IMG/VR virus record: IMGVR_UViG_3300013105_000005
Location: 12,376-76,375 of that record
Source of the DNA: a virus
Taxonomy: Duplodnaviria; Caudoviricetes
DNA: 64,000 nucleotides
Strand: one strand, 5' to 3'
The notes under the pieces are model-generated. The model worked only from the letters and a program-made list of their open reading frames with translations. It was not told where the DNA came from and did not search any database. The position numbers and the translations under genes were made by a program. How positions within the stretch are numbered: position 1 is the stretch's first letter; each line of letters starts with the position of its first letter. Shown piece after piece: positions 38,039 through 41,748 of the stretch.

Positions 38039-39022
38039 TCAGACGGTTGGCAATCTCCTTTCGGTTTTCACTCTTTCCGCCAGACGCTTTCGCGCTCTGG
38101 CAATCCATGCCCAGTTGATAAGCGGCGCGGCCATCAACTCCGCCAAGAGCCGTGCCATGTCGCCGCCCTTGTTTTTCCACTCGCGCAAATCCTTGTCGGG
38201 CTTCGGCGTCAACATGAATTTGGCTTTCCCGGCTTCCGGCAAGATCGCCTCGGCCAGTTCCACTGCGCCCTCGATGCCCGGCCAGTATGGCGTCCCGTTG
38301 GGCATGTACTTCGTGCGGTCGTTGTCGGCGACCACGATTACGATTTGCTTGGGAAGCTCGTGCAACAGTTCCTTGGCGTACCCAGATCCCGCCTTGTTGC
38401 TCGGGCGCCCGACGGCCATCAGGCCGAAGTCGTAGGCCGTCATGGCGTCGGTCAGACCCTCAGGGAGCATCAGGAGCCAGGGCATCGGATCGTCGCTCAC
38501 TTCGGCGGGAATTGGCTTGGGGTCGTAATCGCCGGGGATGAACAAACCAAGCTGCGAACCGGGCACGCACCATTTCTTGCCGGCACCGTCGCGCAGATGA
38601 ATGCCGATGATATTTCGTTTGCCATCGTACATCGGGAATGACCACGCCCCGCGTTCGGTGTCCCAGCCCACTCCGTACGCTTTCAGTGCCTTGACCGACA
38701 CGCCCAGCGAAGTCGCAAACTTCGTTAGCCGTTGCGGGTTTACCGCCGTCTTGTGCGATTTAAGGATGGATGCGATTTCCGATTTGGTCAGGCGCGCCCG
38801 TTGCGCCTTGGCTTTCAGCTTGTCGGCCTTGCCGGTTTTCGCCGATGAATGCAGGTAGGCTATCGAGCCGTCTTTCTGCTTGATCGGGCGATCTGATATC
38901 GCTCTCATGCACTTGATGATTAGGCCATCCGCCGATGCGGTACACCATCCGCCCTTGTGTCCGCAGGCCGGGCACTCGCCTTTGATTTCGCACCACTTCG
39001 CAGCCGGGGGAGTAATGGTCAT
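38039..39022 (-). CDS. DNA primase (Zn finger plus TOPRIM)
   Basis: CPACGH...WC; PEG.TD; VVADND; KDLREW. Confidence 0.85.
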   Translation of the reverse strand: MTITPPAAKWCEIKGECPACGHKGGWCTASADGLIIKCMRAISDRPIKQKDGSIAYLHSSAKTGKADKLKAKAQRARLTKSEIASILKSHKTAVNPQRLTKFATSLGVSVKALKAYGVGWDTERGAWSFPMYDGKRNIIGIHLRDGAGKKWCVPGSQLGLFIPGDYDPKPIPAEVSDDPMPWLLMLPEGLTDAMTAYDFGLMAVGRPSNKAGSGYAKELLHELPKQIVIVVADNDRTKYMPNGTPYWPGIEGAVELAEAILPEAGKAKFMLTPKPDKDLREWKNKGGDMARLLAELMAAPLINWAWIARARKRLAERVKTERRLPTV

Positions 39023-41748
39023 GCTGCACCTGCAACTTCCTTGGCGCTTTCGATGGCGCGGCTGGCGGCATCGAAGTTCATCAATGAAATGGTTTCGGCT
39101 GAATACCCCAGGTAACGGAGATACTTGGCCTGCCCCGTCGTACAGCGTTCAGACTTAAGCTTTTCGATTACTGCCGATGCTTGGCGCTTGCTGAATGCGC
39201 CGGCGGCTTCACGCTTCACGCCCAGTTTCACCAGCAACTCAACCTGCTTATCACTCGACCCGCCCGACGTGGCGGCGAACTTCCGCGCCGGCCCGATATC
39301 GTGCGGGTCCATCGCGTTAATTTCTGTCATGTCGTAGCTGGTGGTAGCGACCAACGCGGCGCGCCGTGCGGCTTCGGCGTTTCGCTTCTTCGCTTCCTCG
39401 GCAAGCAGTTGCTCGTATTCTTCCTGCTCGCGCATCGCTTTGACTTGGCGCTCTTCGTCAATCTCAAGTTCCGCCTGCTGTAACGCCGCTTCTACATCGA
39501 CGGCTTCCTGCTGCGCCAGCAGCTTGGCCCGCTCGATAACCTGATCGTCGTAGCGTTCATCGCCAAGAATATCGGCGGTCGAAATGAGCTTGTGCCGCCC
39601 GGCGTTGCCGACGAAATCCAAAATCTCACAATTCGAAACTAAGAGACCCTCGACAGTGAAGCGATGGCGGGGTCCGGCGTTAATGATGTCGAATACGCGA
39701 GCTTTCCTTTGTATGGGCCTCGCGGACGGTGATTCCGAATAATCTGCTCGAAAGATATTCCGCGACCGAGAAGTCTCCTCAAGTGATCGTCCGAGAATCC
39801 AGCAAAGGGAAACATCAGTCTGAATCTGTGAATCATTGGAGTGATGCGCTTCCCGCGTTGGTTGTTGCACTGGATGGTCCTTGTGGCCCATCGCAGGTTC
39901 CCAGGCTCGTAGTGCCTGTTGTTGTCGATCCGATCGATTTGCATATTGCGGCGCAGGCCGAGATTTACTTGAATCCAAATTGCCATTTCGAGCGGGGAGG
40001 CGAAGCGAAATTGAATGCCTCTGCCCCCGTAATGCGCAAAAACATCCGAGTTTGGATTCACGCATCGATTCTTCGCCAGATTGCATCGCCGGATTAGCCA
40101 CGGCGGAGCGTTCTGTGGACTGCCGCATTTGCGACACCCCGCAGTATTTTTTTTCAAGCTTTGTATCTCTTTCAGTTCCTCTTTCCCGCAGAACGTGCAT
40201 CTTGTCAGCAGAAATGCGCGGGTCGATTTCCGTACAATGTTTCCGTTCACAACGATCAGCTTCCCGCACCGCCTGCCCTCCCACTCCGGTAACACAGATG
40301 GGAATTTGTTGGGCGGCACACTCCCCAAACGTCTTCCGCATTTTAAGTGGGGACGATTTACCGGTCTGGTCATAGACGTATACCTCGTGGTCGGGAGTTG
40401 CGGTCAATCCCGCGTAATCAATTACCCCTTGTTTGCCACGAAATATACTACCACCACAAGATACAAATTCAATCCCATCCCATACAAGCATCTTGTCTGT
40501 CACGAATTCGATAGGAACCAATCCGACGTTAGTTAAGACTCTTTGTCCCTCAGCGATGCAACTGGGTTTTTGGCTTGATGCGATGAGCGAGCGACGACCG
40601 GATGCTTCGGCGATATCCCCAAGCCGATGCGCAATGGAATCTTGCGGTCGCGTACCACGTCCGGCCATCTGCGCATACAAAGCGCGGCTCTTGGTCGGAC
40701 GAGCCATAACGACAAGCTCGATGCCAGGATCATCGAAGCCTTCGGTAGCCACGCCAACATTAACAAGAATGGAAAATCTGTTTTTTGCGTAGTCCGCGAG
40801 CATGTCCCGGCGAGTCTGCTTGGCGGTTTCGCCGCAGACGAACCGCGCGCACCCGTCCACCCAACGATTGAAGATTTCCGCCAGCCGCTCAGCCTGCGCC
40901 ACCGACACGGTGAACACCAGCGTCTTGCGCATCTTGCGCCCGGCCATCATCGCGGCGAGTTTTTCCTGCCGTTTATCATCGTCCTTCAACGCCGCAAGAG
41001 ATCCCGGTTCAAGATTGGCGGCGCGTTCGATGGTCGCATGGGCGACAGGATGCAGCGACGATTCAAACTCCATGACGGCGGCAAGGTCCGCCTGATTCAA
41101 GTCATTACCAACGGTGCGGCACTTGCTGAAATCCAAGCCAGCCACAGCGACCGAAAACTGTCGAACTGGAACAAGCCAGCCATCGCGGATCGCGGAATGC
41201 AGGTCGTAATTGAAGGCAACAGTATCAAAGACGCTGCCAAGTCCTTCCCCGTCGCCACGATCGCCAGTCGCCGTCACACCCAAAACGCGAAGATCGGGAT
41301 TGGTGCGGAAGTGGTCAACCACTCGCCGGTAACTTGCGGCAACCGAATGATGAGCTTCGTCGATGACCAGCAGCGCGAAGTCGTTGGGATTGAATCGGTG
41401 CATGCGCTTGCCATCGTCCAACGATGCGTTTTGCGTCTGCACTGACGAGATGATGAAGTTTGCCGCCCAGGGCGAATGCTCCGGAAGTGTTGCCCACTGC
41501 GAGGCCATTTCGATATCGACGCCCTCGCCGGTGACGGCCTTGATCTTGTCGGCGGCTTGGTAAATCAGTTCCTCGCGATGCGCCAGTACCAGCACGCGGC
41601 CACGCGATGAAAACTCTTTGGCGACGTGGGCAAACACTACCGTCTTGCCGGTGCCCGTCGGCAAGGTCACGATTGTTGATATGCGCCCGCCAGCAAACTC
41701 ACGATGCACGGCGTCATAGGCGGACTGCTGGTAAGGTCGTAGTTTCAT
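39019..41748 (-). CDS. SF2 DEAD/DEAH helicase precursor containing an intein
   Basis: LRPYQ, PTGTGKT, DEAH, TAT, EGFD, QMAGRGTR; intein at residues 397-706. Confidence 0.93.
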   Translation of the reverse strand: MKLRPYQQSAYDAVHREFAGGRISTIVTLPTGTGKTVVFAHVAKEFSSRGRVLVLAHREELIYQAADKIKAVTGEGVDIEMASQWATLPEHSPWAANFIISSVQTQNASLDDGKRMHRFNPNDFALLVIDEAHHSVAASYRRVVDHFRTNPDLRVLGVTATGDRGDGEGLGSVFDTVAFNYDLHSAIRDGWLVPVRQFSVAVAGLDFSKCRTVGNDLNQADLAAVMEFESSLHPVAHATIERAANLEPGSLAALKDDDKRQEKLAAMMAGRKMRKTLVFTVSVAQAERLAEIFNRWVDGCARFVCGETAKQTRRDMLADYAKNRFSILVNVGVATEGFDDPGIELVVMARPTKSRALYAQMAGRGTRPQDSIAHRLGDIAEASGRRSLIASSQKPSCIAEGQRVLTNVGLVPIEFVTDKMLVWDGIEFVSCGGSIFRGKQGVIDYAGLTATPDHEVYVYDQTGKSSPLKMRKTFGECAAQQIPICVTGVGGQAVREADRCERKHCTEIDPRISADKMHVLRERGTERDTKLEKKYCGVSQMRQSTERSAVANPAMQSGEESMRESKLGCFCALRGQRHSISLRLPARNGNLDSSKSRPAPQYANRSDRQQQALRAWEPAMGHKDHPVQQPTREAHHSNDSQIQTDVSLCWILGRSLEETSRSRNIFRADYSESPSARPIQRKARVFDIINAGPRHRFTVEGLLVSNCEILDFVGNAGRHKLISTADILGDERYDDQVIERAKLLAQQEAVDVEAALQQAELEIDEERQVKAMREQEEYEQLLAEEAKKRNAEAARRAALVATTSYDMTEINAMDPHDIGPARKFAATSGGSSDKQVELLVKLGVKREAAGAFSKRQASAVIEKLKSERCTTGQAKYLRYLGYSAETISLMNFDAASRAIESAKEVAGAA
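39631..40560 (-). mobile_element. Intein (310 aa) in the helicase
   Basis: Block A CIAEGQRVLT, block B LTATPDHEV, block F VFDIINAGPRHRFTV, end VSN followed by extein Cys (CEILDFVGN). Confidence 0.9.
39639..40373 (-). CDS. HNH homing endonuclease encoded in an alternative frame inside the intein
   Basis: RC.NP.....YGGRGI and IDRIDNN.HYEPGNLRWAT...Q.NN.R; GAGGT 8 nt before ATG. Confidence 0.88.
   Translation of the reverse strand: MTRPVNRPHLKCGRRLGSVPPNKFPSVLPEWEGRRCGKLIVVNGNIVRKSTRAFLLTRCTFCGKEELKEIQSLKKNTAGCRKCGSPQNAPPWLIRRCNLAKNRCVNPNSDVFAHYGGRGIQFRFASPLEMAIWIQVNLGLRRNMQIDRIDNNRHYEPGNLRWATRTIQCNNQRGKRITPMIHRFRLMFPFAGFSDDHLRRLLGRGISFEQIIRNHRPRGPYKGKLAYSTSLTPDPAIASLSRVS

Follow-up and report, generated by a model that had tools for sequence, protein, structure and literature searches.

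A candidate mobile intein in a phage replicative helicase, with an HNH-like gene overprinted in the +1 frame

A 64,000-nucleotide stretch of a Caudoviricetes genome (positions 12,376 to 76,375 of IMG/VR record IMGVR_UViG_3300013105_000005; hereafter the window) carries a superfamily 2 (SF2) helicase gene that contains an intein of 310 codons. Within the intein, on the same strand and in the +1 phase, a second open reading frame (ORF) encodes a 244-residue HNH-like protein. We consider it likely that a mobile class-1 intein has entered a replicative SF2 helicase of the phage and that a homing-endonuclease-like gene is overprinted on the middle of this intein. We infer translation of the +1 ORF, protein splicing, nuclease activity and homing, and the HNH-like protein probably serves to spread the insert.

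Two reading frames in one helicase insertion

The helicase ORF matches the Pfam domains ResIII (7.8e-29) and Helicase_C (7.4e-12), as well as a DEAD domain, and the PHROG 16 DNA helicase family (1.2e-79). The features discussed here are as follows.

39019..41748, minus strand: SF2 helicase gene hosting the intein; 909 codons, open throughout, with ResIII, DEAD and Helicase_C domains
39631..40560, minus strand: class-1 intein; 310 codons, helicase residues 397-706, with Cys1, a terminal Asn310 and then Cys+1 (39630-39628)
40261..40560, minus strand: Hint N-terminal lobe; intein residues 1-100, blocks A and B, TPDH at 40398-40387
39721..40248, minus strand: intein-frame read-through linker; intein residues 105-280, open, not conserved as protein, predicted to be disordered
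39631..39720, minus strand: Hint C-terminal lobe; intein residues 281-310, blocks F and G (VFDIINAGPRHRFTV and EGLLVSN)
39639..40373, minus strand: HNH-like (His-Me finger-like) putative homing endonuclease ORF; 244 residues plus TAG, ATG at 40373-40371, TAG at 39641-39639
40382..40386, minus strand: GAGGT, a Shine-Dalgarno (SD)-like motif 8 nt 5' of the HNH ATG, formed by codons adjacent to block B (H-E-V); an SD match of at least 4 nt at an allowed spacing
40125..40199, minus strand: putative zinc ribbon of the HNH-frame protein, CxxC-x17-CxxC; residues 59-83, in the beta-rich N-terminal domain of the model
39861..39941, minus strand: predicted beta-beta-alpha core of the HNH-frame protein; residues 145-171, IDRIDNN.HYEPGNLRWAT...N..N

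The intein begins CIAEGQ and closes with LVSN before the extein Cys. The block B sequence TPDH occupies intein residues 55-58 and carries the expected TxxH signature. In an alignment of 94 family members, residues C1, H58, D291 and N310 are invariant and T55 is nearly so, and the consensus of the linker (residues 105-280) reads 'x' throughout. The extein +1 residue is Cys in 160 of the 163 related loci described below and Ser in two. We modelled the intein frame and the +1 frame separately with AlphaFold2 (AF2), each from its 94-sequence alignment. For the intein frame, pLDDT (the local distance difference test score that AF2 predicts) exceeds 90 over most of residues 1-100 and lies at 93-96 in the C-terminal lobe (residues 281-310), while residues 105-280 fall below 50 and form no secondary structure. 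A Foldseek search of the PDB with this model returned only inteins or hedgehog Hint domains among the top 40 matches, the best 14 at a probability of 0.95-1.00; the E values are modest (3e-3 to 0.5) because of the long loop. On this evidence, the intein frame is predicted to encode a Hint domain whose two lobes are parted by a disordered stretch of about 175 residues; profile searches of Pfam and PHROG with the interior matched nothing meaningful.

The HNH ORF lies in the +1 phase relative to the intein ((40560-40373) mod 3 = 1), and its stop codon ends 8 nt short of the intein end. Across the span of this ORF there are no internal stops in the HNH frame, none in the intein frame and 15 in the third frame; upstream of its start, the HNH frame is closed by stops. 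An earlier reading of the sequence alone, the original prediction, had described a helicase frame running open through a 310-residue intein with splicing blocks, an interior devoid of any endonuclease motif, a GAGGT 8 nt before the HNH ATG and an HNH stop 8 nt before the intein end. Its coordinates and motifs all hold, the signals around the HNH ORF are directly legible in the sequence, and the profile searches and model described above agree with it on the interior.

Related loci and frame-specific selection

A protein database search with the intein-frame peptide returned 1103 proteins covering all 310 residues, which comprise SF2 helicases and family-A DNA polymerases. By tblastn, the +1 protein found its best matches in phage genomes inside annotated DNA polymerase coding sequences, offset by +1, in Gardnerella phage vB_Gva_AB1 and in Streptococcus Javan prophages. 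A single intein sequence as query recovered only two loci, so that an alignment query was needed to collect them; with it we obtained 160 loci from viral and prokaryotic contigs, and the counts reported here use 163 full-length loci, the window included. All 163 are free of stops in the intein frame and have their HNH match in the +1 phase, where the open stretch is 262 codons long at the median; stops in the third frame average 19.5. Since selecting loci by their intein frame could bias these counts, we made a second collection with the HNH alignment as query. Among its best 80 loci, 78 have an open intein frame flanked by splicing blocks. The two exceptions differ in kind: L243 has 16 stops in the would-be intein frame and looks truly free-standing, and L177, with a single intein-frame stop, may be a broken or split host gene. 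The original prediction that a separate, out-of-frame endonuclease-like gene resides in this intein is supported by an identical +1 layout across the 163 related loci. Of the findings that it named as refuting, stops in the intein frame of homologs were not seen at these loci, and a sequencing error or frameshift is excluded by the conservation of the arrangement in other hosts and genes.

Most members of the family occupy PolA motif B (134 loci); some 20 lie in SF2 helicases at the site used in the window, and a few lie elsewhere. Among the latter, all of the same dual-coded family, the junctions read WLDH|SGNYL (L014 and L020), PD[IV]V|C[VI]DYA (L042 and L067) and AKFY|CYNKQ (L065), one of these sites having Ser at +1. 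HNH and splicing-lobe divergences rise together (rho 0.72), and in each of the two the elements from helicases form a cluster, so the intein and the HNH gene have moved as one unit. At four loci (L044, L103, L130 and L140) the HNH frame is shortened or interrupted, with 146-196 codons open, and the intein frame remains open; two of these inteins are 261-263 residues long, and the four look like stages of endonuclease decay toward mini-inteins. Among database relatives we found no natural version of the intein with the HNH in frame. In three database proteins (P0347, P0321 and P0299) an extein and Hint N-lobe run without a break into the HNH frame, and the protein stops with the HNH ORF or with the contig; they look like frameshifted or truncated contigs, and natural frameshift mutation, assembly error or expression by frameshifting could each account for them.

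The helicases themselves provide intein-free alleles. Most of the closest homologs (50-63% identity in the N-extein) are 545-620 residues long with no intein at the window's site, and run unbroken through the insertion site as KP[HS]C-EIVDFVGN; some other close homologs carry an intein of the same family at exactly that position. This patchy distribution at a conserved site supports the interpretation of the element as mobile. Three further close homologs (P0121, P0122 and P0140) are about 900 residues long and lack an insert at the window's site; they contain Pfam intein or LAGLIDADG domains elsewhere, and the helicase family has therefore also been invaded by unrelated inteins at other sites.

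To ask which protein is under selection where, we computed codon-position entropy over 101 loci less than 90% identical. Intein position 3 is the most variable in codons 1-70 and 285-310, and intein position 1, which is HNH position 3, is the most variable in codons 75-285. Between close sequence pairs, 74%, 69% and 58% of substitutions fall at the wobble positions of codons 1-70, 75-285 and 285-310, respectively. Because the wobble position switches along the element, we conclude that the splicing lobes are selected as intein protein and the interior as HNH protein; judged by these substitution patterns, what selection maintains in the interior of the intein frame is only the lack of stops.

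The choice of synonymous codons shows how stops are kept out. In this phase, the intein frame can acquire a stop only where T closes an HNH codon and the next codon opens with AA, AG or GA. At the related loci, T-ending HNH codons occur at 0 of 7229 sites before such codons, compared with 24% elsewhere. From synonymous shuffling, 11.3 stops per locus would be expected in the intein frame and none is observed; the same shuffling shows no avoidance in the third frame (15.0 stops observed, 14.7 expected). The window alone repeats the pattern, with T-ending codons at 0 of 60 sites before AA, AG or GA and at 43 of 183 elsewhere; not one of 20,000 shuffles of its HNH codons was stop-free in the intein frame (mean 10.2 stops, minimum 2), so its open intein frame lies far beyond chance. 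Both the frame-specific constraint and the avoidance of stops at synonymous sites uphold the earlier proposal that selection keeps both frames open. A separate idea, that the +1 phase yields an unusually hydrophilic linker, was rejected, as the FILMV fraction is 0.195 compared with 0.213 in the other two frames.

Signals for starting the +1 ORF are embedded in the intein-coding sequence. In 80 of the 101 relatives, the +1 ATG arises at intein codons 48-49 (TAT-GAx), where the Hint N-lobe has a conserved Tyr-Glu/Asp-Gly, and in 69 of these 80 an SD sequence precedes it, with the consensus AGGGAGGT-N8-ATG. Synonymous codon usage at the site is skewed, Tyr being encoded by TAT in 89 of 101 and Glu by GAG in 71 of 101.

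The +1-frame protein and competing explanations

The +1 ORF matches PHROG 374 (2.4e-23) and PHROG 3377 (9.7e-19), both named HNH endonuclease, and an HNH profile built on the family matches 114,605 representative proteins. The AF2 model of the protein has a mean pLDDT of 84.6, with residues 31-215 mostly above 90; the first 20 and last ~25 residues, which overlap the Hint lobes, are poorly modelled. In the 94 HNH-frame sequences, C59, C62, C80 and C83 of the putative zinc ribbon are invariant, as are G116, R118, G119, F124, D147, R148, Y155 and N159, with N168 and N171 nearly so. The modelled core consists of strands 145-148 and 160-163 and a helix at 165-170. Against BFVD, the model has 89 matches at E<=1e-3 to phage proteins, with names that include HNH or helix-turn-helix (HTH) homing endonucleases, 'AP2/ERF domain-containing protein' and 'DNA-binding domain protein'.

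Nuclease activity is plausible by analogy with PacI, an HNH enzyme that lacks the catalytic His, uses a loop Tyr instead and binds metal through Asp and Asn (PMC5714182, PMC4081073); the analogy is drawn because the window's family is likewise His-less, with a DR...Y...N arrangement. As in PacI (PDB 3m7k/3ldy, His-Me finger group 20), the core may be a beta-beta-alpha-metal fold with a Tyr in the loop that links the strands and putative Asp/Asn metal ligands. Unlike PacI, the family has other accessory domains, shows no detectable sequence similarity to the enzyme and superposes on it with a weak Z score.

Several observations weigh against an active homing element of this description. The canonical position of the catalytic His is taken by an invariant Arg (D147-R148), and no His is invariant in the 94 sequences. 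Pfam, NCBIfam and PDB sequence searches with the +1 ORF, as a single sequence and as a 94-sequence profile, gave nothing useful; Pfam HNH_3 matches two of the 94 family members, weakly, and the window protein has no Pfam match. The HNH assignment rests on PHROG 374 and 3377, the motif and the fold. With regard to the fold, Foldseek found no PDB match at E<=0.001, I-HmuI and PacI appearing only at E ~2, and by VIA-align the best specific PDB match, PacI 3m7k, is weak (Z 5.4, root-mean-square deviation 3.4, 80 residues); the other VIA-align matches are also weak, and the N-terminal domain resembles generic SH3/Tudor/KOW barrels. Some free-standing proteins (P0279, P0295, P0354, P0364 and P0368) contain two to four tandem copies of the YGGRGI...DRIDN..Y.PGN.RW module, often each with an HTH-like tail, and one would sooner expect such repetition of a DNA-binding module than of a nuclease. 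The penultimate residue of block G is Ser in the window (SN, as in 13 of 163 loci) rather than the His found in 150 of 163 (HN); in some inteins the penultimate His is dispensable for splicing. Lastly, the window lacks the usual SD and ATG of the family, reading TAC GCG at that place; the putative start, an ATG located 14 codons further downstream, is new and has a GAGGT of its own. In the light of these points, the original prediction of a complete HNH nuclease overstates the case, as the catalytic His is replaced by Arg.

With these points taken into account, we still regard a mobile intein with an overprinted homing-endonuclease-like gene as the likely explanation, and it would work as follows. 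Ribosomes translating the helicase would read the whole insert, that is, the Hint N-lobe (residues 1-100), the ~175-residue disordered linker and the Hint C-lobe (281-310); the two lobes would then fold together and splice out, restoring a helicase of 599 residues. Other ribosomes would start at the internal ATG (40373) behind GAGGT and produce the 244-residue protein, predicted to comprise a zinc-ribbon/beta-barrel domain, a His-less PacI-like beta-beta-alpha core (D147, R148, Y155, N159 and N168) and a C-terminal helical domain. This protein may cut or nick intein-free helicase alleles near ...KPS|CEILDF... in co-infecting phages, upon which recombinational repair would copy the whole element.

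The absence of an invariant His, with Arg at the catalytic position, and the weak structural support in the PDB for a nuclease fold would also suit a different role, in which the +1 ORF is expressed and selected and its product is a sequence-specific DNA-binding protein, either a regulator or a targeting factor for another nuclease, the element being spread by other enzymes or by ordinary recombination. The tandem modules with HTH tails in free-standing proteins and the DNA-binding and AP2/ERF names among the BFVD relatives point the same way. We nevertheless think this unlikely. The predicted beta-beta-alpha element holds the invariant residues D147, Y155 and N159, which recalls PacI with its Tyr for His; the patchy distribution at conserved sites of several essential genes is typical of homing; and many relatives are annotated as HNH or homing endonucleases. 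That the protein might instead arise by +1 ribosomal frameshifting, as a fusion of N-extein, Hint N-lobe and HNH, seems very improbable. Both frames do lie on one mRNA, and P0347, P0321 and P0299 represent rare fusions of just this kind, but they are few and have the look of damaged contigs. No shared slippery motif was noticed, though no search was aimed at one, and the conserved SD and ATG with biased synonymous codons sit just upstream of the HNH domain at 69-80 of the 101 loci. In the window, the displaced ATG has its own GAGGT at a spacing of 8 nt and the HNH frame is closed by upstream stops, and for these reasons the sequence favours independent internal initiation over frameshifting.

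The Ser in place of the penultimate His, together with the precedent of the ShiLan domain (PMC11855218), might suggest that splicing has been lost and that the helicase tolerates the insert as a surface loop, leaving the HNH ORF as its sole functional part. We attach very little weight to this, given that C1, T55, H58, D291, N310 and Cys+1 are invariant or nearly so, that purifying selection acts on the intein-frame reading of the lobes and that their Hint fold is confidently predicted. The window derives from a single metagenomic virus record, which would be the opening for an artefact or relic, whether an assembly frameshift or a decaying HNH pseudogene with its second frame open by chance. 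Such a reading deserves next to no credence: it is refuted by the comparative data, with the same phase and both frames open in 163 of 163 and 78 of 80 loci, and is contradicted by frame-specific selection and by the complete lack of stop-free sequences among the 20,000 shuffles.

Known systems and consequences for annotation

Out-of-frame endonucleases inside inteins have already been described for other nucleases, in preprints of 2025-2026, which cite Gorbalenya 1998 as an earlier description of such an architecture. By its sequence, the window element belongs with them: it has splicing blocks in the host frame and a complete putative endonuclease ORF in another frame within the endonuclease-insertion region, and its overlap follows the published pattern, in which the endonuclease frame is under purifying selection and constraint on the intein frame is relaxed. 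A literature search that included the motif strings of the family found no paper describing an HNH-like +1-phase family in helicases or PolA.

Non-canonical inteins of actinophages hold a homing endonuclease that resembles endonuclease VII and is read in frame 3 of the intein; antisense LAGLIDADG and VSR-like genes also occur (Gosselin, Arsenault & Gogarten, bioRxiv 10.1101/2025.01.02.630785). Like the window element, these have an out-of-frame endonuclease ORF on the same strand in the endonuclease-insertion region, with an unstructured in-frame reading, and their nuclease belongs to the His-Me finger superfamily, to which we liken the window's fold. The preprint describes the intein as splicing-competent and proposes that the arrangement arose when a free-standing endonuclease gene invaded an intein. 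Unlike in the actinophage inteins, the nuclease of the window is of the PHROG 374 type, His-less and without an Endonuclease_7 match; its phase is +1 (frame 2, not frame 3); and its host genes are an SF2 helicase and, across the family, PolA at motif B. The hosts of the family reach well beyond Actinobacteria, and its hundreds of loci contrast with the 'rare' of the preprint.

In the dnaX intein of cyanobacteria, a '+2ORF' encodes a LAGLIDADG endonuclease and shows a frame-specific ratio of nonsynonymous to synonymous substitution, dN/dS (Phillips, DeSimone & Gogarten, bioRxiv 10.64898/2026.09.14.751524). This intein shares with the window an overlapping endonuclease ORF under purifying selection, a relaxed intein frame and a sporadic distribution with intein-free alleles; it differs in having a LAGLIDADG nuclease, a cellular host gene and another phase, where the window has an HNH-like ORF, the +1 phase and a phage gene. 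Stop avoidance and the embedded SD and ATG are seen in the window's family and do not appear in the passages of that preprint that we read.

In a mycobacteriophage methylase, the insertion known as the ShiLan domain conceals an HNH ORF in another frame (Arsenault et al., Genes 2025, PMC11855218). In both cases the HNH ORF lies in an insertion that is open in the frame of the host gene and whose in-frame product is disordered, and the paper treats translation of the hidden ORF as an open question, a further likeness to the window element. The ShiLan domain has no splicing domain and is thought to stay in the protein, whereas the window has complete intein blocks, a predicted Hint fold and an SD-like motif before the ATG, and is therefore not of the ShiLan type. 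In fractured genes, a free-standing gene for a homing endonuclease stands between the two parts of a split intein (Dassa et al., NAR 2009, PMC2677866). These likewise have an endonuclease gene of free-standing type at the endonuclease-insertion site of an intein, but there the host gene and intein are split into two ORFs; the intein frame is continuous in the window and, with no stops, at all 163 loci, so the element is neither a split intein nor a fractured gene.

Taken more widely, the loci may represent a large, old and stable family of dual-coded inteins, a proposal in which we place somewhat less than even confidence. In such a family, a His-less PacI-like nuclease would be permanently overprinted in the +1 phase, with its start signals in conserved codons of the Hint N-lobe and the intein frame kept open purely by synonymous avoidance of NNT codons, at hundreds of loci (PolA motif B, SF2 helicases and a few others) in phages and prophages of Bacillota, Actinomycetota, Pseudomonadota, Spirochaetota and others. 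If this is correct, out-of-frame endonucleases are a durable design and not a rare, transient state that follows invasion by an endonuclease gene. To the class of mobile elements in which two overlapping genes provide splicing and mobility, described as rare in the 2025-2026 preprints, the loci add a large family spread across phyla. The +1 phase also provides a rule for cheap overprinting, in that a synonymous T-to-C change in the nuclease frame removes any intein-frame stop. The predicted tolerance of the splicing lobes for a disordered insert of ~175 residues may interest intein engineers, and the His-less nuclease, if active, would be a second natural example of PacI-like chemistry.

For annotation, the consequence is that the nested nuclease gene is either overlooked by gene callers or called at the cost of fragmenting the surrounding polymerase or helicase. 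On high-GC metagenomic contigs (L166-L169, e.g. L167:785-1579), the nested HNH ORF is annotated as stand-alone and the PolA gene is cut up, with the polymerase-plus-intein frame open throughout. Because the gene caller split the surrounding PolA in these cases, the top 'free-standing' database relatives of the HNH are in fact nested ORFs.

The virus record is a complete genome of 76,375 bp with direct terminal repeats. The helicase gene is adjoined by a primase-like gene (38039-39022), the setting being that of a replication module, and upstream of it lie DNA methyltransferases and an ORF that we read as ParB-like, which matches only a PHROG family of unknown function. On the opposite strand, two plus-strand ORFs, with nothing seen to mark them as genes, overlap the intein, at 39881-40375 (164 residues) and 40081-40536 (151 residues).

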